Shown: positions 2,802-53,973, counted from the first letter of the stretch. The stretch: DNA of 54,140 nucleotides from a virus (IMGVR_UViG_3300031954_000008:1-54140), one strand, 5' to 3'. Notes: generated by a model not told the origin, from the sequence alone. Translations and numbers: made by a program.

Positions 2802-3196
2802 TGACGACATTTCAACCTATTACACCGAATTGGCTGACCGCAGCTTGGGATCAGTTCAGCGAAAGCGACCCAGAACTGGAGCAGGCATACGATTGGCCCG
2901 ACTTCCCAAGCGACAGAACAGGCGAAGGCAACTGGATTGACCTGTATTTGACTGAGACAGATGACTTTCCGATTGGCCGGTTGTGGATTAACCCTGATAC
3001 ACAGAACATTGGGCTCATACCGCTGCCAGATGGCAACATCAGCTACCAGACGAAGATAGCCTTGGAGCTACGCGAGTACAAGCACCATCGCACAGACCCG
3101 CTGACTGCGTATGATCAGATCAAATCGGAATACTTTGGGACACAAGAAGAAACAGGCAACTTGAAGAGCGCAGGAGTGCCCGGTGAGTCTTTCTAA
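2798..3196 (+). CDS. Small acidic hypothetical protein, possible immunity protein for the upstream toxin
   Basis: 132 aa. Start overlaps the upstream stop (GTGA/TGATG). Function inferred from position only. Confidence 0.6.
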   Translation: MMTTFQPITPNWLTAAWDQFSESDPELEQAYDWPDFPSDRTGEGNWIDLYLTETDDFPIGRLWINPDTQNIGLIPLPDGNISYQTKIALELREYKHHRTDPLTAYDQIKSEYFGTQEETGNLKSAGVPGESF

Positions 3197-4850
3197 TGGG
3201 CCGCTGGTCATGGACCACTGGCACATTTACCGCAACCCTCGTGTTGCGTGGGACCCGCATGATGGGCAATGCCAGGTTCTGGAGAGTAAAGCGAGACACC
3301 GCGTTTGGTGCGCAGGACGCCGTACAGGAAAGTCGGAGCTAGGCGGGCACGTCCTGCTGCCCGAAGCGTTCGCAACACGTACGGTCAGCAATGACTGGCT
3401 CAAAAAGGGTAAGCGGCGTGAGTTTTGGATCGTTGGCGACGAATACGTCACTGCAGACAAGGAGTTCCGTGTTATTTGGCATCTCGCTAAGTATCTCCAG
3501 ATTCCGTTCGACAAGGGTAGCCATCATTCCATTGATGGTAAGGATCAAAGCGTGCTTAGCCTCTGGAATGGTGCGTTCCTCATACTCACTCAAAGTGCCA
3601 AGTACCCAGATAATCTCGTCGGTGAGGCACTCTGCGGAGTGCTGATGGTGGAGGCCGCGAAAGCGAAGCCAAGCATCTGGATGAAATACATCCGGCCCAT
3701 GCTCAACGACTACAAGGGCTGGAGCTTACACACATCGACACCAGAAGGGAAGAACCATTTCCACGACAAGTACGAATTTGGCCAGGACCCATACAATTTG
3801 GATTGGGCAAGCTGGCGGATGCCGGCGTGGCGTAACCCGTATGTGTATCCAGAGACAACGAGAGATGACCACGTTAAGTTCTTGCTAGATCAGCTGGAAG
3901 ATCACCCCGGCAGAAGCGCAGCCAGCATCGCGGTTGCTAACGACTTGCTCATAGATTCTGAAATCCTTGCTCTTGCAGACGAATTGACCATTCCTCTGTT
4001 CAAGCAAGAGGTCATGGCCGACTTCACCGAGTTTGTAGGACAGGTGTTTAAGGACTATGACGAAGAATACCATGTTGGAACGCTCAGCTACAATCCAGAT
4101 TGGCTCACTTTTGGTGCAACTGACTACGGCTTTACCAATCCTAACGTTTGGTTGCTTATCCAAGTTGGTCCGTGGGGCGAGATCAACGTGCTTGCTGAAG
4201 TATATCAGCCAAACCTTACAGCCGAACAGTTCGCAGATGAAATCATCAAGCGCCGCACCAGAGATGGTGTCCCTCTCAACCCGCCCGACCTCAGGACTTT
4301 CTATCCTGATCCTGCAGACCCGATGTCCAGTCGAACACTCTCCGACCGTTTGAAAGTCAGTGCGGCTGGCGGGACTGGTGGTGAACTCAACATTCGCATC
4401 AACTTGATTCGCCAAGCGTTGCGTGCTGGCCGAATCGACTACGGTGCAACACCTTTGACTGAGGGCAACTATGACAAGTGGCGCCCGCGACTGATGATAG
4501 ACCGCAGCTGTACGAGCTTGCGCAATGACATGCTTGCCTATCGGTATCCAGAGCGCAAAGAGGATGCTGAGACCAGTCGTGATCGCTTTGAGTTACCGCT
4601 GAAGAAGGATGACCATGGACCGGAAGCGTTGGGACGCTTTATGGTTGGCTATTACGGGCCAAATTCTCTTACCGCTAGCGCTGGTACACGGATACGAAAG
4701 GCTAACCTGGGACGTCATGCTAGCAACAAGCGACGAGACAGGGTTGCAAAGCCAAAGCCATTGAGCGCCATGAGACCTACTGCGAGTGGTTATCCGACTT
4801 GGCGAGAGGGCGGTACGATAACCGACAAGGAGTTTAGAGATGCCGATTGA
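3183..4850 (+). CDS. terL: Terminase large subunit
   Basis: Walker A AGRRTGKS, Walker B-like VLMVEA, STPEG coupling motif, nuclease DYG...DDH motifs; lies just before the portal. Confidence 0.93.
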   Translation: MSLSNGPLVMDHWHIYRNPRVAWDPHDGQCQVLESKARHRVWCAGRRTGKSELGGHVLLPEAFATRTVSNDWLKKGKRREFWIVGDEYVTADKEFRVIWHLAKYLQIPFDKGSHHSIDGKDQSVLSLWNGAFLILTQSAKYPDNLVGEALCGVLMVEAAKAKPSIWMKYIRPMLNDYKGWSLHTSTPEGKNHFHDKYEFGQDPYNLDWASWRMPAWRNPYVYPETTRDDHVKFLLDQLEDHPGRSAASIAVANDLLIDSEILALADELTIPLFKQEVMADFTEFVGQVFKDYDEEYHVGTLSYNPDWLTFGATDYGFTNPNVWLLIQVGPWGEINVLAEVYQPNLTAEQFADEIIKRRTRDGVPLNPPDLRTFYPDPADPMSSRTLSDRLKVSAAGGTGGELNIRINLIRQALRAGRIDYGATPLTEGNYDKWRPRLMIDRSCTSLRNDMLAYRYPERKEDAETSRDRFELPLKKDDHGPEALGRFMVGYYGPNSLTASAGTRIRKANLGRHASNKRRDRVAKPKPLSAMRPTASGYPTWREGGTITDKEFRDAD

Positions 4851-6450
4851 TTCCAGACAGTACGACTCAGTCATCAGCCAAATCCGCGATGACACCGGGT
4901 TCAGCAGACTCGTCGGCAACCTCAGCAACATAGACGACCGCATACGCATCAAAGCGTATGAAATGTTTGAAGACTTCTACTACAACCGGCCAGAACACAT
5001 CAAAGTTGTTCTGCGAGGCGAAGATGACGACTGCATCGAGATTTACATGCCGTCGGCCAAGAAGTGTATCGAAGCTGTAAACCGTTTCCTTGCAGTTGAA
5101 TTCGATTATCAGATTGATCCAGACGCTGACGAGGCAACGTCGCAGGTTATGGACGATGCGCTCCAATCTCTGTTCAAGCGGCAAGAGGTAGTACAGAAGT
5201 TCAACCAGATGAAGCGGTACATGCTCATCAAAGGTGATGCGCTGCTTCATATTCGGGCAATTCCGTGGGAGAAGGCTGGGCGGCGCTTGAGGGTTGATGA
5301 GCTGCGGCCTGAACACTACTTCCCAATTGAGGATTTTGCTACAGGTGAGTGCATAGGCTGCCACATCGTTGACGTTATCCGTAATCCGCGCAACAGTTCT
5401 CAGACCAAAGCCGCCAGCGACGAGTGGATTGTGCGCCGGCAGACGTATAAGCGCGCTTTTGATGACAGCGGAACACCAACGGGCAGAATAACTTCCGAGC
5501 TTTCGCTGTGGAAGGTTGGGATGTGGGATGATCGTGTGGCCACTCCTGACCTAGATCAAATCTCAGTGGTAACTCCTGAGTTTGAGCTTGACCCGTTGAT
5601 CACAGAGATACCCGTTTACCATTGGGCGAACAGACCGCCACCCGGTAGCACTTTCGGCATGAGCGAATTGGCAGGCGTTGAGTCAATCATCAACGCTATC
5701 AACCAATCTGCCACAGATGAAGACCTTACGCTCATCACGCAAGGCTTGGGCGTGTACTGGACCGACGCATCACCGCCCATAGACGAGAACGGAAATGAGG
5801 TGGAGTGGGAAATTGGACCAGGCGCTGTTGTTCAGGTTGGGGTTGGCGCTAATTTCGGTAGGGTTTCTGGAGTCTCCACGCTTACGCCGTTCCACGAGCA
5901 CATCTCCCTTCTGGACGAAAACATGCAACAGGCTCTCGGCGTGCCTGATGTTGCTATTGGTATGGTCGATGTTGCAGCTGTGGAATCTGGTATAGCGCTG
6001 ACGCTTAAGTTTGGCCCGTTGATCGCGGCTAACACAGAGAAGATGCCGACTATCACCAAAGTCGCAGATGAGTTCCTAGACGACTTGCTGGATTGGCTAC
6101 AGGTCTACGAGGGCATAGCACGCAATGGTGTTGATATACAATCAGTTTTCGGCGATCCTATGCCGAAGAACACCACCCAGATGCTGGCGGATTACCTATC
6201 CATCTGGGTTCAGGCTCCGAGCACACTCCCTGTCGAGTGGCTGTATGACCGACTCAACGAGCTATTTGGTTGGGACCTAAGCGATTCCGACTTCAACCAA
6301 GCTCTGGAAGATGCCAAGAAGATAGCCGAATCAGCTGCTCCACCAAACCCAATAGCTGATCAGATGAACCAGTTTGGCGATCAAGGTGGCCAGGTGCCAC
6401 CAGATGCGTTCCAAAACAATGGGCAGACACTAGATTTCAGCACTATGTGA
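4840..6450 (+). CDS. Portal protein
   Basis: 536 aa directly after terL; FGMSEL and ESGIAL motifs typical of SPP1-like/actinophage portals. Confidence 0.88.
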   Translation: MPIDSRQYDSVISQIRDDTGFSRLVGNLSNIDDRIRIKAYEMFEDFYYNRPEHIKVVLRGEDDDCIEIYMPSAKKCIEAVNRFLAVEFDYQIDPDADEATSQVMDDALQSLFKRQEVVQKFNQMKRYMLIKGDALLHIRAIPWEKAGRRLRVDELRPEHYFPIEDFATGECIGCHIVDVIRNPRNSSQTKAASDEWIVRRQTYKRAFDDSGTPTGRITSELSLWKVGMWDDRVATPDLDQISVVTPEFELDPLITEIPVYHWANRPPPGSTFGMSELAGVESIINAINQSATDEDLTLITQGLGVYWTDASPPIDENGNEVEWEIGPGAVVQVGVGANFGRVSGVSTLTPFHEHISLLDENMQQALGVPDVAIGMVDVAAVESGIALTLKFGPLIAANTEKMPTITKVADEFLDDLLDWLQVYEGIARNGVDIQSVFGDPMPKNTTQMLADYLSIWVQAPSTLPVEWLYDRLNELFGWDLSDSDFNQALEDAKKIAESAAPPNPIADQMNQFGDQGGQVPPDAFQNNGQTLDFSTM

Positions 6451-6461
6451 CAGGAGGTACA

Positions 6462-6647
6462 ATGGCCGCAAAAGGCAAGGCGCGCATGAAGCCTGGTGGC
6501 GGTGGGCGTTTCAAGAAGTTAACCAAAGGCGGCATGAGTCCTGCACTAGCTGCCTACGTTGGGCGCAAGAAGTACGGCGCCAAGAAGATGGCCAAGTTCA
6601 GCGCAACAGGCCGCAAGCGAGCAGCACGGGCCAGGAAGCGAGGATAG
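6462..6647 (+). CDS. Small, very basic (K/R/G/A-rich) protein
   Basis: Strong SD (AGGAGG) before ATG 6462; 61 aa with no acidic residues. Confidence 0.75.
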   Translation: MAAKGKARMKPGGGGRFKKLTKGGMSPALAAYVGRKKYGAKKMAKFSATGRKRAARARKRG

Positions 6648-6648
6648 C

Positions 6649-6918
6649 ATGGGGTTACGTCGTAAGGGCAGCGGTGGTCGCCACTATCCACCGGGTACAA
6701 TCCCTGGCCAGCCAGCTGCCGGCCATCATCCGTTCGCATCAAAAGCTCAGCAGCGCTTGTTCTTTGCGAATCCAAAGCTGCGTCGTTGGGCTATAGGTAA
6801 AGCACACGCTACCGGCGAGCACCACGAGCTTGGGCCTGCTAGCAGCGCTGTGTACCGGGCGTTACCAGACCGTAAGGGCGCCAGTTTCCAAAGGGTGCCG
6901 TTACGTCCCAAGCACTAA
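6649..6918 (+). CDS. Small basic protein
   Basis: ATG 2 nt after the previous stop; contains PFASKAQQR, a motif I recall from small phage head-region proteins. Confidence 0.65.
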   Translation: MGLRRKGSGGRHYPPGTIPGQPAAGHHPFASKAQQRLFFANPKLRRWAIGKAHATGEHHELGPASSAVYRALPDRKGASFQRVPLRPKH

Positions 6919-6927
6919 GGACGCAAG

Positions 6928-7308
6928 ATGGAGCTTCGTCTGAATCATGTTCACCCGCCCACTATTTCAGCACAAGCTCAAACCGCGTTGCGGCACATGG
7001 CAATTGCTGCGTACCCATACGAGACTTGCGGCTTGATCCACGAGCACGGCATTATCGTTGAGCATCCCAACACTTTTGCTGGCGATCACAGGCTTGGGTA
7101 CGACATGGAGTTTGATCTTCACGACCCAACGATCAAGGCAATCTGGCACACGCACCCTGGTGGGCTTGAGGTGCCGTCGCGGGATGATCTGCCGTGTATC
7201 CGGTTGCTCGCTGAACGCGGCTTCAATTTCCATCACATCATCGTCACTCCCAAAGGTGTATACGAGTATGAGGCGAAGTTAGTTGACAGCGCCGTTACCG
7301 CAGCCTGA
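6928..7308 (+). CDS. JAB/MPN (Mov34/M67) metallopeptidase
   Basis: Complete JAMM motif: YPYETCG (catalytic E)...WHTHP...PSRDD (H-x-H-x7-S-x2-D). Confidence 0.88.
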   Translation: MELRLNHVHPPTISAQAQTALRHMAIAAYPYETCGLIHEHGIIVEHPNTFAGDHRLGYDMEFDLHDPTIKAIWHTHPGGLEVPSRDDLPCIRLLAERGFNFHHIIVTPKGVYEYEAKLVDSAVTAA

Positions 7309-8191
7309 TGATAGCGGAGCATCCATCTGGTTGCTCAAATACCTGACGGTACAACAACTTTACGACAAGAAGATCGTAAAGGTACTGCAGCAGGCCCAAT
7401 TTGACGCAGGACAGGAGGCCGATAAGTGGCAAAGGACCAACATTGGTGACAGGACCAAGCGATACCAATTCAACCTGGTTAAAGACCAAATCCGCACGAT
7501 CATACAATCAATGTTCAAAGACCTTGTCCCAATCATCGACCAGGGGCAGCAAGACGCAGCCGAAGCAGCTGCGAAGGCTGCTCTGGCTCAGGATGCGAAG
7601 GTGCTAGATGCGCTGTTCCCAGCCGCGAAGGATCGAAAGGCGTGGGAAGCCAGCTTCATTCAATCAGCACAGCACGGCATCCAGGCGATGATTACCCGGC
7701 TTACCAAGTCGAAGATAACCCTCAGCCAGCAGGTGTACCGTACCGGCTCCATGGAGGCTGGGCGGGTTGACCGGAAGATCAACAGCGCTCTCGCACGTGG
7801 TGCTAGCGCCAAGGAATTGGCCAAGCTGGTGCGAAATGATATCAACCCCAACGTAGCTGGGGGAGTCAGCTATGCAGCCATGAGGCTGGGTCGTAGCGAG
7901 ATTAACAACGCTTTCCATGCAATGTCTATCGGCCAAGCTCAGGAGGATCCATGGGTTGAGGAAATGGAATGGCACCTTAGCAAGGTACACAAGCCTGATC
8001 CAGGTGACCTCTGTGAAACATACGCTGAGCAAAAGTATTTCCCGAAAGACGCTGTGCCGTCGAAGCCGCATCCACAATGTATGTGTTACCTGACACGCAA
8101 AGAGATGGCATGGGGTGACTTTACAGATGCACTTGAGTCCGGCCAGTTCGATGACTACTTTGAAAAGAAGTACGGTATGCCCGCCGCATAA
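7283..8191 (+). CDS. MuF-like (SPP1 gp7-like) minor head protein
   Basis: AMRLGRSE...W...C...PxxPHPQCMC motif; lies between portal and scaffold. Confidence 0.8.
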   Translation: MTAPLPQPDDSGASIWLLKYLTVQQLYDKKIVKVLQQAQFDAGQEADKWQRTNIGDRTKRYQFNLVKDQIRTIIQSMFKDLVPIIDQGQQDAAEAAAKAALAQDAKVLDALFPAAKDRKAWEASFIQSAQHGIQAMITRLTKSKITLSQQVYRTGSMEAGRVDRKINSALARGASAKELAKLVRNDINPNVAGGVSYAAMRLGRSEINNAFHAMSIGQAQEDPWVEEMEWHLSKVHKPDPGDLCETYAEQKYFPKDAVPSKPHPQCMCYLTRKEMAWGDFTDALESGQFDDYFEKKYGMPAA

Positions 8192-8258
8192 CTTCAGCGA
8201 AGCTATCCCGCTGCGAGGTACGCTCCACTTGATCTGTCTAATCCGTAAGGAGACCAAG

Positions 8259-8960
8259 ATGTCCCAGAGCCCAGTTGAGGCCGAATACTTCGTGATCTGG
8301 GGTGGTGAAGGCGAACGTGACGGAGAAAACCAAGGCGGCCAAAACCAGGGAGAATCTGGTGATACTGGCAAACCTCCTGAAGGAGATGGTAATTCAGGGG
8401 ATGGCGACGATGATGGTGCGAAGCGTCTCAAAGAGCTTGAAGACAAACTCGACTCCGAGAAGAAGCAACGCATTGCAGAGAAGAAGCGCGCTGATAAAGC
8501 GGAACAGAGCCTGCTGACCAAAAACCAAGAGGGACAAGAGGAAGCAGAGCGCACCGCAACCGAGCGCGATGACTACAAGGCCAAGTACGAGAAATTGCTT
8601 GAGTTCGTTGAGACTTCGTACATCGACACGGCCATCATGAAGAACAAGAAGTACGACTGGCACGACGTGGAAGCGGTTCGCAGCTTCCTGAACAAGGACA
8701 ACATTCGGCTCGACATGGACACGGGTGAGATCGAAGGCCTGGACCTGGAGTTGAAGCGCATCGCCAGTGAAAAGAAGTACCTGTTGGTGCCGCACGAATC
8801 TGAAGGCGGCGCACCACCTTCCGCGCCTCCAGGGACTCCACCGTCAGGCAGTCATCCCGTTGGCGGATCAACACGTCAGCGCGAAACGGATCGTCAAAAG
8901 CTAGGCGCCAAGTACAAGTTGCCCGGTTTTGGTCCAGGCGCTCTCGCTAGTCAGCGGTAA
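8259..8960 (+). CDS. Capsid scaffolding protein
   Basis: SD AAGGAG before ATG 8259; acidic Gly-rich N-terminus, coiled coil and Pro-rich C-terminus; upstream of the capsid genes. Confidence 0.8.
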   Translation: MSQSPVEAEYFVIWGGEGERDGENQGGQNQGESGDTGKPPEGDGNSGDGDDDGAKRLKELEDKLDSEKKQRIAEKKRADKAEQSLLTKNQEGQEEAERTATERDDYKAKYEKLLEFVETSYIDTAIMKNKKYDWHDVEAVRSFLNKDNIRLDMDTGEIEGLDLELKRIASEKKYLLVPHESEGGAPPSAPPGTPPSGSHPVGGSTRQRETDRQKLGAKYKLPGFGPGALASQR

Positions 8961-8983
8961 TCCCAGAAAGGAAAACAGCAAAG

Positions 8984-9400
8984 ATGGCTCGTTACGATAA
9001 GTTTGACCCAATCGCTAACGGTTTCCGTGCCCACGTCGCAGCCGATTATTTGGATGCTGACCTGGGCAAAATTTTTGGCGTTGGCCTCGACACCACGGGC
9101 AAAGTGGTCAAAGGTGGCGGTAACTCTGGGGTTGTCGGCGTACTCGTCGTAACGTCCAAGCCAGGCGTTGTCGGCCCGCAGAAGCAGATTTCATCTGTGG
9201 ATGTCATGCAGCAGGGCTGCGTTACCGACTTCGGCCCTTCTAGTGCCGGCTTGGTTCCGGGTACTGACTTCGGCGTGGCAGGAACTAAGTATTACGCCGA
9301 TCCAGCCACCGGCATCGTCTCAACGACTGCCGCTGGTGGTGTATACGTTGGGACTACGGTTGAACCCGACCGTCTTCAAGTGAACGTCAACACAACCTAA
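8984..9400 (+). CDS. Capsid decoration/cement protein (putative)
   Basis: 138 aa, Gly/Val-rich and beta-like; between scaffold and major capsid; good SD. Confidence 0.65.
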   Translation: MARYDKFDPIANGFRAHVAADYLDADLGKIFGVGLDTTGKVVKGGGNSGVVGVLVVTSKPGVVGPQKQISSVDVMQQGCVTDFGPSSAGLVPGTDFGVAGTKYYADPATGIVSTTAAGGVYVGTTVEPDRLQVNVNTT

Positions 9401-9444
9401 TCGCCTCAAAGCCAATGAGCTTCGCGCAAATTGAAAGGATGACC

Positions 9445-10614
9445 ATGGCAGAGAAGTTCCGCATTTGGGGCGGTGCCGGTAACCGTTCCGGCTACATGAC
9501 TGAGGGTGATATCCTCACTCATACCATCGATGGCGTTGACCTCAACCAACTTTGGGGTGAGTTCATTGACGCCAACACGATCTACAACGAGCACAAACAG
9601 GGCATGGTCGGATTGCTCACTTACCCAGTGGTTTCCGACATCGAACTGGTGCCACAGATCGGCGACTTCAACTTTGAAGAGGCGACTGAATTCGGCATCC
9701 CGCGCAAGGCGAACACCAACATCAGCTACTACCAGCTGGCTTACTCCTACAAGGACTGGGACCTTGGAGTTGGCTACACCTGGAAGTTCTTGCGGGATGC
9801 ACCGGCTCAGCAAGTAGAAGCCATTCATACCAAGGCAATTCAGGCAGACCAGGCCTTGGTGTTCCGCAAGGTGATGGAAGCGCTGTTCGATCAGCGTAGC
9901 CGTACCACCATCATCAACGCCATGACGTACAACGTTTACCCGCTCGCCAACGCAGATGGTTGGGTGCCACCGCCCTATAAGGGTGTCACGTTCGACGGTA
10001 CTCACAACCACTACCTCACTTCTGGTGCGGCAGGCATTGATTCAGACGACTTTGAAACCACTGTTGGTACCCTTACCGAACACGGTTATGGGTGGGACAC
10101 TGGTACGCAAATCGTCTGCTTCGCCAACCGCTCTGAGGTAAACCAGATGCGTAAGTGGCGATTTGGGCAGGCCAACGCCAACGGCAAGACGGCCAACTAC
10201 GACTTCGTGCCGGCTCTTGGCCAGCCCGCGTTGCTCGTGCCGAACGCCGAAGGTCTGTTGGGTGGCCAGGCTCCTGCCGTGTGGAACGGCTTGCGGGTCA
10301 GCGGTTCTTACATGGACGTCATCGTCATTGAAGAGCCATTGATGAATCCTGGTTACTGCATGTTCCTTTCAACTGGCGGCGCCAACGTTGACGAGAACAT
10401 CGTTGGTATCCGCGAACATCCGTCACCGGAGTGGCGGGGTTTGAGGTTGCTGCCGGGTAACCAGCAGCGTTACCCGCTCGTTGACGGCTACTACATCCAC
10501 GGTTTCGGCACTGGTATCCGGCGACGGACTGGTGCTGCTATCCTGCAGATCACAGCCAACGCGAGCTACGCGCCACCGGCTTCGTACACGGCTGACTCAA
10601 CGCAAACCCGCTAG
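9445..10614 (+). CDS. Major capsid protein
   Basis: About 389 aa, SD GAAAGGA before ATG 9445; position, size and FEEATEFGIP / GFGTGIRRR motifs resemble actinophage major capsids. Confidence 0.85.
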   Translation: MAEKFRIWGGAGNRSGYMTEGDILTHTIDGVDLNQLWGEFIDANTIYNEHKQGMVGLLTYPVVSDIELVPQIGDFNFEEATEFGIPRKANTNISYYQLAYSYKDWDLGVGYTWKFLRDAPAQQVEAIHTKAIQADQALVFRKVMEALFDQRSRTTIINAMTYNVYPLANADGWVPPPYKGVTFDGTHNHYLTSGAAGIDSDDFETTVGTLTEHGYGWDTGTQIVCFANRSEVNQMRKWRFGQANANGKTANYDFVPALGQPALLVPNAEGLLGGQAPAVWNGLRVSGSYMDVIVIEEPLMNPGYCMFLSTGGANVDENIVGIREHPSPEWRGLRLLPGNQQRYPLVDGYYIHGFGTGIRRRTGAAILQITANASYAPPASYTADSTQTR

Positions 10615-10622
10615 GAGTCAAC

Positions 10623-11012
10623 ATGAGTCGTGAAATCGACTTTGACAAGCCGCTGTCGGATGAGGATAAGCGGTGGCTCCACGAACGATCGCTTGACTAC
10701 CACATTGAGGAGAATGAGCGAAAGTTTGGTCAGGCCAAGGTACATGCCGAAGGGCTGCCTGTGAAGGTTGAGATACCTGGTCTGGAAGTACCGGAGCCAC
10801 CTGCGCAGCCTACTTTTGCGCCTGGGTGGGTGCCTGAGGTAACCCCAAGCGGCACAACGGAAGTGGCCGAAGAAGAAGTTGAAGAAGTTGCTCCTGAAGA
10901 CCTCACCGTTGAGGAATTGAAGGTGGAGCTTCGTGAACGCAATTTGCCTACGGACGGCAACAAGGCAGAGCTAATCAAGCGGCTCAACAAGGCACTGAAG
11001 GACGAAGGTTGA
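10623..11012 (+). CDS. Head-region protein with a C-terminal SAP/HeH DNA-binding motif
   Basis: LTVEELKVELRERNLPTDGNKAELIKRL matches the SAP motif pattern. Confidence 0.75.
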   Translation: MSREIDFDKPLSDEDKRWLHERSLDYHIEENERKFGQAKVHAEGLPVKVEIPGLEVPEPPAQPTFAPGWVPEVTPSGTTEVAEEEVEEVAPEDLTVEELKVELRERNLPTDGNKAELIKRLNKALKDEG

Positions 11013-31881: not shown

Positions 31882-32478
31882 ATGCAGCGGTATGTAATTG
31901 GCGGCTTGCTCATAGGCATTGCCCTTATGTGTAAGATGCCATGCGCTTACGCTGATCCTGTGCCGGCTCCAATTCCTGGTCCTGGTGGTGGAATTGATCC
32001 AGTAGGAGGGTCAGTTGGTATTGGTGCTCCTGGACTTGGCGGCGGTGGGCCTGGCTTGTCCCCTGCCGCCGCCACCATATTCCTCTGTCCAGGTCGTGGT
32101 GCAGCCGTAAGCGTTGTTGGTGGTGGTGGAGGGTATTGCGACTGGAACTTTCAAGTGGTACCTTTCGGCAACGGCCATTATGGTGTTATGCATGATCATT
32201 GCGAATGGGGTGGCTTCAATCCCCTTGTAGAGATGTGGAATTGCTGGCGGGTTTGGCCGGGCCAGCCTGATCACCCCGCGCTACCCGATCCAGATATCAT
32301 TCCAGATGGTTGGGGTGTGCCGTGGGCGATTCAAGGTCCAACCCCAAGCGACCAATGGCCTCCACCTGGCCTAGCGCCGTTTATTCCAGCACCGCCAGCA
32401 GAGCCAGTGGGTCCACCACCTGGACCACCGACAGCGGAACCGCCGCTTGGTTTGAGAGAACCGGAAGGAACACCATGA
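31882..32478 (+). CDS. Secreted Pro/Gly/Cys-rich protein
   Basis: N-terminal signal peptide with AYA|DP cleavage site; four Cys in the mature core; Pro-rich tail. Confidence 0.65.
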   Translation: MQRYVIGGLLIGIALMCKMPCAYADPVPAPIPGPGGGIDPVGGSVGIGAPGLGGGGPGLSPAAATIFLCPGRGAAVSVVGGGGGYCDWNFQVVPFGNGHYGVMHDHCEWGGFNPLVEMWNCWRVWPGQPDHPALPDPDIIPDGWGVPWAIQGPTPSDQWPPPGLAPFIPAPPAEPVGPPPGPPTAEPPLGLREPEGTP

Positions 32479-33224
32479 CTGAAATCATTCTACCATTTGA
32501 TCACGGTATCATACCGCAGGAAACTGGCTACTGGTGTGGGCCTGCGAGTGCCCAAGTGGCACTGAGTTGTCGGGGTATCTACGTCGAAGAATGGATACTA
32601 GCAGAGGAATGCGGTACCCACCAGGGCGGCACCGATTATGTTGGGCTGATTGAGAATTGCCTTAACGGTAGGCTGCCAGAACGTCCGTATGACTCTGTAT
32701 ATGCGGATAGCTACCCGGATGACCAAAAGAAGCAAAGGTTTTGGGAGCTAGGCATCGTTGGTTCTATCAATGCCGGCTACTCGCTTGTAACTAACTGGCA
32801 AGTTCCGCCCAACAACAATCCAGTAGGGATCAAGGGATCAGACTCACCAAACTACAGCGACTACAGCGACACCTACCACTACACAAGTGTTGTCGGATAT
32901 GACGATCAATATCCAGGTGGCGCCGTTTATGTTGCGGATTCTGGCTTTTGGCCTTGGGAATACTGGATTAGCTTCGATCAACTATGTACTCTCATACCAC
33001 CAAAAGGATTCTGTTACAGCACTATCAAAGGAGAAGCCGAAGTGCCCACACAAGAGGAATGGAACGATCTGGTACGCAAGGTTGATAACATCGAACGCCA
33101 GCTAGGCCCATGGCCGCAGCTTGGCCAGAACGCGGCTGGTGAAGACCTGACGCTGGTCGATGCTACAGCTTCAATCAAGAACACCGTTGAAGGTGGTGAG
33201 CCCCCTTTACAGAGCCGCCAATAA
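32475..33224 (+). CDS. lysA: Lysin A (C39-like cysteine peptidase domain plus conserved C-terminus)
   Basis: QETGYWCGPAS...HY...GYD...ADSG papain-like triad; C-terminal WPQLG...TLVDA motif of mycobacteriophage lysin A proteins. Confidence 0.8.
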   Translation: MTEIILPFDHGIIPQETGYWCGPASAQVALSCRGIYVEEWILAEECGTHQGGTDYVGLIENCLNGRLPERPYDSVYADSYPDDQKKQRFWELGIVGSINAGYSLVTNWQVPPNNNPVGIKGSDSPNYSDYSDTYHYTSVVGYDDQYPGGAVYVADSGFWPWEYWISFDQLCTLIPPKGFCYSTIKGEAEVPTQEEWNDLVRKVDNIERQLGPWPQLGQNAAGEDLTLVDATASIKNTVEGGEPPLQSRQ

Positions 33225-50878: not shown

Positions 50879-51691
50879 GGTAACGTGTCGAGCCATGTAC
50901 AGCTTGAGAAGGCGTGTACCAAGTTTGGCATCAAACCGCTGTTCGGCCTTGAGGGTTACGTTGCCCCGCCCAACGAGCGCAGGAAGTGCCATCAGACCAT
51001 CCTAGCCATGACGCAGGCTGGTTATTCAAACCTGAACAAGTTAGTCGTTGAGTCGTGGAAAACCATTGGGAGAACCAGCAAGACACGGTTTCCGACGATT
51101 CACGTTGAGATGCTTGAGGAGTTTAGTGACGGACTCATTGTACTCTCTGGATGTTCTGATTCGGTGCTTGCCTGCACGCTCTTTGGTGGAAAGTCTTACG
51201 GTGCACCAGGATTCAGATTCGACCCAGAGCAATATCGGCGTGCCCTTGGGGTCGTGGAATGGTACCAAGAGGTATTTGGCGACAGGTACTACCTTGAAAC
51301 TCAGCGCTTTCCTGCGCTGCGTCGAACTTGTAAGATCAATCAGGCCTACGAGCGCATTTCCAGAGACACCGGAGCACAACTTGCTGCGACGAGCGACTGT
51401 CATTATGTCTATGCTAGAGACAACGAGATGCAGAAGGTTCTTCATGCGGCTCACCGTGGTTCTAGCGTATCCGCCACAGAAGCGGCTTGGGAGTACAACG
51501 TAACACTAGACATACCAGAGAGCGACGAGCGCGTGTACCAAGACCTTTTGGGCACGGGGTTAACGGAAGATGGTGCGTTACAAGCACTCTCGAACACCGG
51601 GGTGATAGCTGATCGTTGTGACGTGAAGCTCGCAAAGGTAGAACCGCTGCGGTATCCAATTGAGGGGAAGGACTGGCTACCGTGGTCGTAA
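50879..51691 (+). CDS. dnaE: DnaE PHP domain, remainder
   Basis: GNV...GIKPLFGLEGY...H...GYSNL...LSGC...YYLE.Q...ATSDCHY...IADRC. Confidence 0.88.
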   Translation, partial: GNVSSHVQLEKACTKFGIKPLFGLEGYVAPPNERRKCHQTILAMTQAGYSNLNKLVVESWKTIGRTSKTRFPTIHVEMLEEFSDGLIVLSGCSDSVLACTLFGGKSYGAPGFRFDPEQYRRALGVVEWYQEVFGDRYYLETQRFPALRRTCKINQAYERISRDTGAQLAATSDCHYVYARDNEMQKVLHAAHRGSSVSATEAAWEYNVTLDIPESDERVYQDLLGTGLTEDGALQALSNTGVIADRCDVKLAKVEPLRYPIEGKDWLPWS

Positions 51692-53973
51692 AACCTGATC
51701 TCACTACGTACGCGATCAATCTTAAACCGTCTGATGAGGCAGTAAAGCTGTTGCGGCACTGGCTAAATTGTGGATGGGATTATCGCCTTGACATCACGCA
51801 AAACGAAAGTATGCTCAACCGACCCCAGCTATACATCGACAGAGTGGAAGCGGAGTTGGAGCTTATCATTGGCAAAGGTTTCGTTGACTACTTCCTGGTC
51901 ACGAGCGACATTGTCAGGTGGGCTAAGGACCATGGTATTGCGGTTGGACCTGGACGTGGGTCAGCGTCTGCTAGCGTCGTATGCTATCTTCTCCGTATCA
52001 CGGAGATTGATCCCGTGGTATTTGACCGTCTGCTTTTTGAAAGGTTCATCGACCCAAGCCGAAACGATTTGCCCGACATCGACTTGGACTTTGATGATGA
52101 GCGTAGACAAGAAGTCTTCGACTACGCGGCAAGTCGTTACGGCGCAGATAAAACGGGTAAAGTCGCAAACTTCATGAGATACAAGGGAAAGAACAGCATA
52201 GACGATGTCGCACGAGTCTATCACATCCCAAGTTGGGAGGCAGACAAAGTCAAGCGTCTTATCATTGAACGTGGTGGTGGAGACTCGCGGGAGGGCAATT
52301 CTCTTGAGGATACGTTTGCCGTATTCCCAAGAGCCCAAGAGGTTTTGGATGCGTATCCGACAATTGCCAATGCCGTCCGATTGGAAGGTAATTACCGTGG
52401 TATGGGCGTCCACGCGGCTGGTCTCGTCATCTCGAATACGCCCATCACTGACGCTTGCGCTTCGTACACGAAAACAACTGCGGGTGTTGAGACTTCCGTC
52501 ATAGCGTACGACAAGAAGGACTCAAAGTACATGGGCTTCTTGAAGCTCGACATCTTGGGCCTTAGCACCATGAACGTGCTCGGTACTGCGGCCGAAATGG
52601 TCGGTATGTCGTTGGAGGATGTGTACCGTATCCCGCTAGACGACCGCAAGACAATGAAGGCTTTCCATAGGAGTGATGTAATTGGTATCTTCCAATTTGA
52701 AGGCCGCGCAACAAGACTCGTGTGCCGTGACGTGCGGCCTGATACGTTCCAAGAACTGGTTGATATCAACTCGCTGTCGAGACCAGGCCCATTGTTCTCT
52801 GGCACAACTGGCGACTACTGCGACGTCAAGCACGGACGCGCACAGCCAAAACGATTGCACCCCATCGTAACTCAGGAAACCCGCCAGACACGCGGCCAGA
52901 TCATCTTCCAAGAGCAAATCCTCAGGATCATCAAAGAGGTTGGCGGGTTTCCACTTGACCGTGTCCACGAGATACGTTACATCATCTCGCAGAAGCTAGG
53001 TGAGGCGCAGTTCGGCAGTTTCTATGACCGATTTGAGAAGGGTGCGCTGGAGCTTCACGGTATAGACGCCCAGTTAGCCTTGCGCATATGGCGATTCATG
53101 GTTACGAGCGCCACCTACACGTTCGTTACCGCGCACTCCACCGGCTACGCGATCATCGCATGGTGGTGTCAGTGGTTCAAGCAGCACCACCCGGCTGCGT
53201 TCTACGCGGCTCGTCTAAGGAAAGCTGACGATGAGTACAAGCGAACAAAGCTCATCAAAGATGCTATGCGGCACGGGATTAAAGTGGTACCACCTGACAT
53301 TGTGGACTCTCAAGTCAGCTGGACACGAACCGACAAGCGTACTGTGTGCGCGGGTTTCTTACAGATCAAGGGAATTGGGCCCAAATACGCACGAGCTATT
53401 GTGGATTACCTGGAATCGACGCACTGGGAAACCGCGCCTACTTGGGACGACCTCATTAAGGTCAAGGGGATTGGACCCAAGACTATTGAGCGCATTAAGC
53501 TGTTCGCGGCTGACCCAGACCCGTTCGGCATCAACAGGATTCATCGCATTCTTGAGGAGATTCGTGGGGATATAGCAGCCGGCAGTTTCCCTGGTATCCC
53601 TGACCCTACGCACACGAGCGATGACCTGGCCATGGATGGCTCGTTTGATGTTGTGTGGGTTGGTATTCCGGTAGCGAAGGAATACAAGGACATCGTGGAA
53701 GACGAGCGCGCCAGGACCGACAAGACGACAGAAGAGATACTGGCTGAGATAGATGAACCGGAGCTAACGAAACTGTGTGTGGTCAAGTGTATAGACGATG
53801 GTGATGAGGACGTTCACTGCCGCATTAATCGCTTTGACTTCAACAGATTTGCCGATAGATTGGAGACACTACGGACAAACGGCAAAGACGTGCTCATCGT
53901 AAAAGGCCGAAAGCGCGACGGTTTCGGCACCAACATACTAGTGAAGGAAATGTGGGGATTGTGTCTGGACTAG
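51682..53973 (+). CDS. dnaE: DNA polymerase III alpha, polymerase portion
   Basis: GPGRGSA, FERF, PDIDLDF, HAAG, KLDILGL, GIFQFE, RPGP and HhH IKGIG motifs. Confidence 0.95.
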   Translation: MVVKPDLTTYAINLKPSDEAVKLLRHWLNCGWDYRLDITQNESMLNRPQLYIDRVEAELELIIGKGFVDYFLVTSDIVRWAKDHGIAVGPGRGSASASVVCYLLRITEIDPVVFDRLLFERFIDPSRNDLPDIDLDFDDERRQEVFDYAASRYGADKTGKVANFMRYKGKNSIDDVARVYHIPSWEADKVKRLIIERGGGDSREGNSLEDTFAVFPRAQEVLDAYPTIANAVRLEGNYRGMGVHAAGLVISNTPITDACASYTKTTAGVETSVIAYDKKDSKYMGFLKLDILGLSTMNVLGTAAEMVGMSLEDVYRIPLDDRKTMKAFHRSDVIGIFQFEGRATRLVCRDVRPDTFQELVDINSLSRPGPLFSGTTGDYCDVKHGRAQPKRLHPIVTQETRQTRGQIIFQEQILRIIKEVGGFPLDRVHEIRYIISQKLGEAQFGSFYDRFEKGALELHGIDAQLALRIWRFMVTSATYTFVTAHSTGYAIIAWWCQWFKQHHPAAFYAARLRKADDEYKRTKLIKDAMRHGIKVVPPDIVDSQVSWTRTDKRTVCAGFLQIKGIGPKYARAIVDYLESTHWETAPTWDDLIKVKGIGPKTIERIKLFAADPDPFGINRIHRILEEIRGDIAAGSFPGIPDPTHTSDDLAMDGSFDVVWVGIPVAKEYKDIVEDERARTDKTTEEILAEIDEPELTKLCVVKCIDDGDEDVHCRINRFDFNRFADRLETLRTNGKDVLIVKGRKRDGFGTNILVKEMWGLCLD

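Follow-up and report, generated by a model that had tools for sequence, protein, structure and literature searches.

PfJAMM1, Cap3, Rpn11 and CSN5 are enzymes whose cut lies behind a glycine tail at the C-terminus, and Mec+/CysO and HvJAMM1 are further stand-alone prokaryotic examples of the JAMM/MPN+ type. In phage lambda, the K protein is a tail-module fusion of MPN with NlpC/P60. Double-glycine leaders, the substrates of C39 peptidases, are N-terminal and carry hydrophobic residues followed by Gly-Gly, Gly-Ala or Gly-Ser. To our knowledge, the prohead protease families of phages (S78, S77, the S49 enzyme of lambda and the ClpP-like enzymes) consist of serine enzymes throughout, and Prp is the sole case of a host enzyme in this role. 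According to the relevant passages of PMC5744158, Prp of the host cuts a motif common to the scaffold and the capsid protein of phage 80alpha. Here, the whole IMG/VR virus sequence IMGVR_UViG_3300031954_000008 (54,140 bases, linear, 76% complete according to CheckV), a 54-kb actinophage record referred to as the window, was analyzed with respect to its siphophage head module, which occupies the left third of the window on the plus strand. In this module the scaffolding protein and the major capsid protein begin with a common N-terminal tag, and a small JAB/MPN+ metallopeptidase (hereafter JAB) is the probable remover of that tag. Of the cultured phages, those nearest to the window are Onyinye, Aikoy and Leopard, all from Mycobacterium, with a capsid identity of 83%.

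The scaffold open reading frame (ORF), with its ATG at 8259 and AAGGAG six bases upstream, begins MSQSPVEAEYFVIWGG-EGERDG, and the capsid ORF, with its ATG at 9445 and GAAAGGA upstream, begins MAEKFRIWGG-AGNRSG; in-frame ATGs at 9415 and 9439 would extend the N-terminus of the capsid protein and leave the motif unaffected. The stretch A-E-x-F-x-I-W-G-G-x-G is common to both proteins. The best ungapped BLOSUM62 segment between them had a score of 53, which was reached in 0 of 5000 shuffles of the first 40 scaffold residues (mean 21, maximum 46). When every stop-to-stop ORF on either strand of the window was compared with the first 16 residues of the capsid protein, the best match was the scaffold ORF, followed by a 68-residue minus-strand ORF with a score of 40, and IWGG occurred in no other plus-strand ORF of the window. 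An earlier note, made from the sequence alone, had described an AExFxIWGG-type N-terminus shared by these two proteins; the sequences read as it described, and the shuffles agree. Its exact wording holds for this lineage but not for the family, in which only the glycine at P2 is constant.

Published data on two relatives are in keeping with cleavage at the tag. Among the solved capsids, those of phages Adjutor (PDB 8SAJ, E 6e-134) and Patience (8GIU, E 3e-116) match the window capsid. In the passages concerned of the Patience proteomic study (PMC4324244), peptides of gp21, the scaffold homologue, were found by mass spectrometry (MS) to start at Thr35, directly after PIFGG, and gp21 gave just three spectra in particles, as expected for a scaffold. 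In the corresponding passages of the capsid-structure paper (PMC11965321), the capsid model of Patience begins at Thr20, again after PIFGG, this end being ordered and held by hydrogen bonds in the map at 2.4 A, and that of Adjutor begins at Asn28, after GLSG-HD; the models were trimmed to these residues for want of density, and the minor capsid protein keeps its N-terminal Met in both. The model starts fall 0 (Patience) and 2-3 (Adjutor) residues past the motif glycine. In the phmmer alignment, FRIWGG-AG of the window lies over FPIFGG-TA of Patience, with G10/A11 of the former corresponding to G19/T20 of the latter. The suggestion of the earlier note that Gly-Gly is a cleavage signal is thus supported by N-termini from MS and cryo-electron microscopy that lie directly after the homologous PIFGG of Patience. 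This literature documents cleavage at the tag position in relatives, and by homology the proteins of the window phage would be cut there as well. Moreover, capsids that naturally lack the tag start at this very position, and the tag is therefore no part of the mature shell. Patience gp21 is also listed among the N-terminally acetylated proteins, the residue being unspecified in the passage (PMC4324244); if the acetylated residue is Thr35, the cut would be made where a cytoplasmic acetyltransferase can reach. The gene table of Patience labels gp19, the JAB, as 'Protease' (PMC4324244), and neither this paper nor the capsid-structure paper, in the parts available, ties together the two proteins, the motif or JAB.

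As to the candidate enzyme, JAB belongs by motif, profile and fold to the JAMM/MPN+ metallopeptidases, and zinc-dependent hydrolysis after a Gly-Gly tail is predicted for it from a model. The match to Prok-JAB (PF14464) has an E-value of 1.6e-9 and 38.1 bits, above the 25-bit cut-off, and the catalytic residues Glu32, His74, His76, Ser84 and Asp87 are all present, in agreement with the intact JAB/MPN metallopeptidase that had been read in this head module before. In an alignment of 39 homologues, E32, H74, H76 and D87 are invariant and S84 is nearly so. The zinc motif H-x-H-x(5-9)-[ST]-x-x-D is kept in 60 of 60 JAB ORFs, these being the ones with an assignable start codon among 64 JAB matches (loci L004, L028, L074 and L075 were left out); the L004 protein likewise keeps the motif. 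An AlphaFold2 model of JAB (predicted local distance difference test, pLDDT, 95.9; predicted template modelling score, pTM, 0.88) had PfJAMM1 (including its complex with SAMP2), Cap3, Rpn11 and CSN5 as top Foldseek matches, with template modelling (TM) scores of 0.5-0.6 and Cap3 with CD-NTase at rank 4. The best solved relatives in a profile search of the PDB were 2kks (5e-13), Pyrococcus JAMM1 (5lda/5ld9, 3e-12) and 2kcq. Both fold and profile are therefore nearest to enzymes that cut behind a C-terminal Gly-Gly. The gene order portal, JAB, MuF, scaffold, minor capsid, capsid is found in the window and in most relatives, and JAB has the gene position of a capsid maturation protease, between the portal and capsid genes.

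A complex model was built from JAB (with its own alignment), scaffold residues 1-40 and zinc. Its median interaction prediction score from aligned errors (ipSAE) was 0.91, compared with 0.00 for the best of three controls. Of 80 solved complexes 58 reach the ipSAE mark, as do 2 of 110 mismatched pairs. At least 70% of contacts recur between runs, with a partner pLDDT of at least 54. The predicted interface includes JAB residues 32, 49-65, 72, 74-80, 84-87, 89-90 and 94, together with residues 7-20 and 22 of the scaffold. In the model, JAB residues 58-62 pair with F11-G15, Asp87 contacts G15 and G16, His76 contacts E17, and Glu32 lies in the interface; the contacts of Asp87 and His76 would therefore place the Gly16-Glu17 bond at the metal site. 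The model supports binding of the tag in the JAB groove, and the scaffold tag appears to it as a ubiquitin tail.

The distribution of the tag was followed across the capsid family. A tblastn search with the capsid protein found 161 phage records (72 of Mycobacterium, 46 of Gordonia, 38 of Microbacterium and 5 of other phages), 14 of which were examined, picked to cover the identity range. In addition, IMG/VR was scanned with the capsid alignment; of 300 matching stretches, 235 were relatives, and the best 80 were kept (loci L020-L099). Hidden Markov models (HMMs) were built from the 15 phages (the window included) and run on 95 sources, of which 95 had a match to the capsid protein, 93 to the minor capsid protein, 86 to the scaffold, 69 to MuF and 64 to JAB. 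In the window and the 14 phages, the N-termini of scaffold and capsid are alike within a phage and different between phages. The capsid and scaffold tags are APIYGA-E and LSIYGA-E in Alyssamiracle, VVGLSGHD and LTLSGHD in Adjutor, LPFGG-E and PPFGG-E in Send513, and SIHGHDG and ALHGRDG in RikSengupta; Konstantine and Patience have PIFGG-T on the capsid and PIFGG-T/E on the scaffold, and Terapin has KFFAFGGDGG on both. In Onyinye they are KLLVRGG-E and KLRLRFG-D, a pair that resembles the LRLRGG tail of ubiquitin. In most loci, the best match between the N-terminal regions of capsid and scaffold comprises two to three hydrophobic residues, an invariant Gly, usually G/A/S, and then D/E/T; the family form of the tag is hydrophobic-x-hydrophobic-G-[G/A/S], followed by D/E/T. 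The site lies 8-13 residues ahead of a conserved GD[IL] block, and P1 is mostly G, A or S and also H, Q, R, C, N or F, residue counts that are rough, as the register of the heuristic site finder is at times off by one residue, in the window as well.

For the analysis of co-variation, one locus was taken per cluster at 70% capsid identity, which gave 23 clusters; 22 were used, one scaffold being cut by the contig end. The mean score of own pairs was 33.2, compared with 24.2 for the 462 cross pairs, and 0 of 20000 permutations reached 33.2. The own scaffold was the best of 22 in 8 cases and in the top two in 11. Because own pairs outscore cross pairs, the scaffold and capsid tags co-vary, which is what one shared reader per phage would produce.

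The occurrence of JAB follows that of the tag. Where 5 kb or more of sequence precedes the capsid gene, a JAB match was found in 50 of the 52 loci that bear a tag and in none of the 5 tag-less ones (0/7 with two later loci); with at least 3 kb upstream, the counts were 56/59 and 0/6. One of the two exceptions, Huwbert, has its JAB elsewhere in the genome (33.9 bits), and the other is the fragment L085, which is considered below. Counted over the 23 capsid clusters, JAB lies in the locus in 18, where it is in the head module and mostly abuts MuF, and elsewhere in the genome in one; three clusters have too little upstream sequence, and the fragment in the last one (L085) has none. A tblastn search with JAB itself reached 23 records, too few for a census.

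The tag-less capsids have 79-84% identity to the window capsid and start MTSPVYHSGTLVEGDIL.., at most three residues from the predicted mature end, and the tag-less scaffolds open directly with their Gln/Asp-rich region. In these loci, JAB and MuF are both absent between portal and scaffold, and no PF14464 match at E <= 1 was found in the whole records of five tag-less contigs, which are fragments of 20-45% completeness. A second IMG/VR scan for complete tag-less genomes yielded solely fragments of at most 31 kb. Replacement of the whole module in the tag-less clade was considered and rejected: its portal is 55% identical to that of the window, and its scaffold has 38-44% identity with the scaffolds of L036 and the window, and because these identities are retained the head module is homologous and not replaced. 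In the capsid tree, the tag-less clade shares a supported group (97/99) with L036, a locus that carries tag and JAB alike. The capsid of L041 (1 kb upstream available) is also tag-less and starts M-AGQRSGY, exactly at the predicted mature end; because L041 belongs to another supported group (99/99), the capsid tag was lost twice. MuF was considered as a partner of the tag and is ruled out by L036, L045 and L047, in which JAB stands directly before the scaffold and the tag is present with no MuF match; the tag thus follows JAB, not MuF. The earlier note had proposed co-occurrence of tag and JAB as a check, and its outcome is that JAB goes with the tag and that both are missing from the close tag-less clade. 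A motif kept without JAB, which the note held to be adverse, was not found in 50 of the 52 loci and was found in the L085 fragment and in lone bacterial capsid genes.

Other enzymes were also sought in the phage. S78, ClpP, S49 and S77 (PF04586, PF00574, PF01343 and PF03420) had no match at E <= 1 in the whole 54-kb record, consistent with the reading in the note that no known prohead protease is present; because there is no homology, JAB is at most a functional analogue of the known prohead proteases and not a member of them. Pfam scans of 31 window ORFs found one further peptidase, a C39_2 domain at 32310-33224 (E 5e-13), an attractive candidate in view of the double-glycine leaders that C39 enzymes cleave, which was rejected as a domain of lysin A, whose homologues occur in 571 records of Mycobacterium, Gordonia, Corynebacterium and Rhodococcus phages with many capsid types. 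Several proteins annotated as maturation proteases in relatives were set aside as well. Send513 gp12, Fowlmouth gp7, RikSengupta gp14 and Krampus gp14 are MuF proteins, the weak Met-zincin match of RikSengupta gp14 (20.3 bits) being below the cut-off and without HExxH, and the 'capsid maturation protease' of DrLupo (gp18) and of P3.1 is Lys/Arg-rich, with no Pfam match and no HExxH. ThiF (PF00899) and ThiS (PF02597) had no match at E <= 1 in the 76%-complete record, and 14 (scaffold) and 8 (capsid) residues precede the Gly-Gly, with no beta-grasp domain. The absence of a visible E1 or ubiquitin-like conjugation partner, also noted earlier, is therefore borne out for the ThiF and ThiS types, E2-like families not having been searched.

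Together with the observed shared motif, intact active site, co-variation of the tags, and joint presence and loss of tag and JAB, these results lead us to consider it likely that JAB is the peptidase that removes the tag. In this mechanism, scaffold and capsid would be made with N-terminal propeptides of 16 and 10 residues, both ending in a ubiquitin-tail-like hydrophobic-x-I-W-G-G. The 126-residue JAMM/MPN+ peptidase, encoded between portal and MuF, would bind the tag as an extended strand in its groove, with the P6-P1 strand beside JAB residues 57-63, and the Glu32/His74/His76/Asp87 zinc site would hydrolyse the P1-P1' bond after the second glycine. The products would be a capsid protein starting from AGNRSG and a scaffold starting from EGERDG. 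The cut might be made either before assembly or inside the procapsid, and before its removal the tag could serve folding or assembly, as in 80alpha, or recruit the peptidase. Beyond this phage, we lean cautiously towards the wider proposal that actinophages use an unrecognised class of capsid-maturation protease, in which a minimal JAMM/MPN+ zinc peptidase reads a linear hydrophobic-x-hydrophobic-Gly-Gly tag on both N-termini, with tag and enzyme co-evolving in each phage, across phages of Mycobacterium, Gordonia, Microbacterium and Nocardia, and in which the lone capsids of satellites may borrow the JAB of a helper. A literature search found no paper, in the parts available, in which a JAMM/JAB enzyme is said to mature these capsids or a tag common to scaffold and capsid is described. 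The idea that JAB is a protease is implicit in annotations such as 'metalloprotease' and 'protease', which neither argue nor test it. Processing at a shared N-terminal motif is known, and its performance by an unrelated enzyme family would be new.

Several points weigh against JAB as the remover of the tag. That JAB acts on the tag is inferred from comparison and one complex model, whose high score may partly come from likeness, because solved complexes of JAMM enzymes with ubiquitin tails exist, and for which the ipSAE calibration holds only roughly, because JAB's own alignment and a zinc ion were used. Known JAMM substrates have a folded beta-grasp domain before the Gly-Gly, in comparison with 9-16 residues here, and a P1 residue other than Gly is unusual for JAMM enzymes. 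The presence of the tag was scored by eye with the JAB column in view, not blind, and the co-loss with verified absence of JAB represents one clade and one event, in fragments of 20-45% completeness. L085, a 10.6-kb fragment, is tagged (WPILGA-S and LPMVGG-A on scaffold and capsid) and has no JAB in the 6.1 kb upstream. In the Microbacterium phages Krampus and RikSengupta, a divergent JAB (H-x-H-x6-S-x-x-D) is found near the left genome end, far from the head genes, with 16.2 and 20.7 bits, below the Pfam cut-off. For Patience gp23 (L006 8962-10164), passages of the 2014 proteomics report a capsid cleavage between residues 82 and 83 (PMC4324244); the later capsid model, from 2025, contains residues 20-82 and contradicts it, according to the passages available (PMC11965321). 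Residues 25-98 of gp23 are without Lys or Arg, and this stretch is therefore invisible to tryptic MS. Finally, of 24 lone homologues of the capsid protein from bacterial genomes, about 9 are still tagged as judged by eye (for example PIFGG-T, LFAFGG-D or PIFGA-D), with no JAB nearby.

These homologues come from a scan of bacterial genome contigs that was meant as an independent co-occurrence set, for which lone capsids without head modules cannot serve. The scan found 24 capsid homologues (L100-L123), with 33-42% identity except for one partial match of 76%, in the Actinobacteria Amycolatopsis, Demequina, Mycobacterium, Rhodococcus, Nocardia, Micromonospora, Nocardioides, Tsukamurella and Lolliginicoccus and on one contig of a Saccharibacteria metagenome-assembled genome (L106). 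Examples are L122 (9959-11137), L109 (9911-11131), and L114 and L116, both on one Tsukamurella contig. Scaffold, minor capsid, MuF and JAB were found within 10 kb of none of the 24 loci. About 10 of the lone capsids are untagged and start M-[AP]-R-G-[YFI], and in the loci inspected the capsid is followed by a small basic protein with an RDxxGRF-like start. The neighbours encode a tyrosine integrase, Prim-Pol with DUF3987, D5_N with DUF5906, and DUF3631. The lone capsid loci look like small integrative elements or phage satellites. As a guess, such elements may use a helper phage, which would reconcile them with tag removal by JAB.

The main alternative is that a host protease cuts the tag, as Prp does in 80alpha, either a cellular JAMM, for example of the Mec+ type, or another enzyme, and that the phage JAB has some other job. 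In addition to the Prp precedent, the lone bacterial capsids that are tagged without JAB within 10 kb, the tagged L085 fragment without JAB, and a motif core (hydrophobic, Gly, small, acidic) that is similar across host genera, as a conserved host enzyme would need, fit this view. On one host strain, M. smegmatis mc2 155, however, the tags differ strongly (PIFGGT, LSGHD, PFGGE, VRGGE), and each of them matches within its own phage. The joint loss of tag and JAB in the close relatives (0/7) is unexplained by a host enzyme, none of the 60 JAB ORFs examined has lost the active site, and the tag docks in the JAB groove in the complex model. The lone capsid genes, for their part, lie beside integrase and primase genes and may depend on the JAB of a helper phage. 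Considering both sides, we regard cleavage by a host enzyme as unlikely.

It is also conceivable that the tag is mainly an assembly or targeting signal for a common partner and that in the window phage it is kept, or removed without JAB. In 80alpha, the N-terminal peptide of the scaffold is needed for assembly and its cleavage is dispensable, according to the passages concerned (PMC5744158), and the published cleavage evidence comes from Patience and Adjutor, outside the window phage and the Onyinye group. On the other hand, Patience gp21 is cleaved exactly behind the motif, which is also where the Patience and Adjutor capsid models and the natural tag-less capsids start, and we find this explanation quite improbable. 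A role of JAB unrelated to the tag, as a counter-defence deconjugase (ubiquitin-like or of the Cap2 type of CBASS, the system of antiphage signalling based on cyclic oligonucleotides) or as a tail-assembly peptidase like the MPN of lambda K, is highly improbable, for although Cap3 in complex with CD-NTase ranks fourth among the fold matches, several homologues are called 'tail protein' in RefSeq and the JAB of Microbacterium phages lies among small genes at the left genome end, JAB is in the head module in 18 of the 23 clusters, is lost together with the tags and has no NlpC/P60 fusion or tail context in the window, and either role would not preclude tag cleavage too.

If JAB does remove the tag, phage assembly would gain, in a zinc JAMM peptidase, a class of enzyme unrelated to those known there. 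Two published observations would be explained, namely the unusual start of Patience gp21 and the absence of the leading 19 and 27 residues from the capsid maps of Patience and Adjutor. In many of the 161 phage records, a gene that now bears the name 'tail protein', 'metalloprotease' or 'hypothetical' would be relabelled, and MuF and basic proteins mislabelled as maturation proteases would be corrected. It would also be a natural case of tail-only recognition by a JAMM enzyme, in which a Gly-Gly tail is read without a ubiquitin fold.

The features of the window are listed in Table 1. The MuF-like protein is also matched by the MuF HMM made from relatives. Homologues of JAB are labelled 'tail protein' or 'minor tail protein' by RefSeq, a label that looks wrong; the entries concerned (JAB or MuF) include L004 4164-4556 and 4537-7107, L008 3802-4200 and 4184-5143, L009 5498-5872, and H81. 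Larger basic proteins (Patience gp18, Konstantine gp15 and Terapin gp7, and also DrLupo gp18 and the P3.1 protein mentioned above) are found in relatives at the position of the two small basic proteins of the window. In L085, an ORF with DUF6527 (3775-4113; PF20137, E 4e-9) lies between portal and MuF, at the JAB position. The first large protein of the window has a weak match to ADP-ribosyltransferase exoenzymes in its C-terminus (PF03496, E 6e-4, below the cut-off) and a faint HipA_C kinase-like match in its N-terminal part, and its Onyinye homologue is annotated as ADP-ribosyltransferase. Directly after the capsid gene, positions 10623-11012 encode a 129-residue protein with a C-terminal SAP domain (PF02037, E 3e-14). 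Moreover, a DnaE-like polymerase extends over two overlapping ORFs, with a PHP domain at 50885-51691 and the Pol III alpha core at 51682-53973; the pair represents a gene split or a frameshift, with the end of the record close behind.

Table 1. Head-module genes, motif positions and predicted cleavage sites in the window
Feature	Position	Strand	Basis or remark
Large ADP-ribosyltransferase-like protein, 901 residues	96-2801	+	Pfam; upstream of terminase gene
Terminase	3183-4850	+	Same position annotated terminase in relatives
Portal	4840-6450	+	Weak SPP1_portal match
Two small Lys/Arg-rich proteins	6447-6647 and about 6649-6918	+	Between portal and JAB; no Pfam match
JAB/MPN+ (JAMM) metallopeptidase, 126 residues, proposed tag remover	6928..7308	+	PF14464
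Codon of catalytic Glu32 (E-x-C-G)	7021..7023	+	Invariant in 39/39 aligned JABs; in predicted interface
JAMM zinc motif H74-T-H76-x7-S84-x-x-D87	7147..7188	+	Read from translated sequence
MuF-like minor head protein	7283..8191	+	Overlaps JAB stop codon; PF04233 E 0.002, below cut-off
Scaffolding protein, 233 residues	8259..8960	+	PF06810, 48.9 bits vs 35-bit cut-off
Predicted scaffold propeptide Met1-Gly16 (..AEYFVIWGG), predicted cut Gly16/Glu17	8259..8306	+	Shared motif, complex model, homologous site of Patience gp21
Minor capsid protein, 138 residues, untagged	8984..9400	+	N-terminus MARYDKF as in relatives
Major capsid protein, 389 residues	9445..10614	+	83% identity to annotated Onyinye capsid
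Predicted capsid propeptide Met1-Gly10 (MAEKFRIWGG), predicted cut Gly10/Ala11	9445..9474	+	Aligns with Patience F14-G19

Among the known systems, that of 80alpha and Prp is alike in that a short N-terminal motif recurs on scaffold and major capsid protein, which are unrelated to each other. According to the passages available, 13-14 residues are removed in 80alpha (PMC5744158), compared with the 10 and 16 predicted here, and the enzyme is a host cysteine protease with a Phe/Ala site, the motif copying host ribosomal protein L27. Here, by contrast, a motif of the form hydrophobic-G-[G/A/S] followed by [D/E/T] co-varies within each phage, and a zinc JAMM encoded by the phage itself is the candidate enzyme. 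The Phe-Ala motif is absent from the window sites, which have G-G and then A/E, a Prp homologue not having been searched for. The leader peptidase of the C39 type is a cysteine peptidase fused to an ATP-binding cassette exporter, whereas the sole C39-like domain of the window belongs to lysin A.

Lambda K and CBASS Cap3 are, like JAB, MPN/JAB domains of phages or defence systems; Cap3 reverses the conjugation of the cyclase, and neither of them is linked to head genes or N-terminal tags. The classical prohead proteases, HK97 gp4 (S78), T4 gp21 (S77), lambda C (S49) and the ClpP-like enzymes, share with JAB the gene position and the proposed task of N-terminal trimming. They are serine enzymes with no sequence relation to JAB, which is an MPN-fold zinc metallopeptidase, and in the present system the scaffold would, as far as the data go, be trimmed at its tip only. 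PfJAMM1 with SAMP2 (5LDA/5LD9) resembles JAB in fold, catalytic motif, a size of about 130 residues and the cutting behind a Gly-Gly tail that is proposed for JAB. Stand-alone JAMMs act on folded beta-grasp substrates, whose C-terminus is freed for or from conjugation, whereas the proposed substrate here is an N-terminal peptide of 9-16 residues with no ubiquitin-like fold and a P1 residue that is not always Gly.

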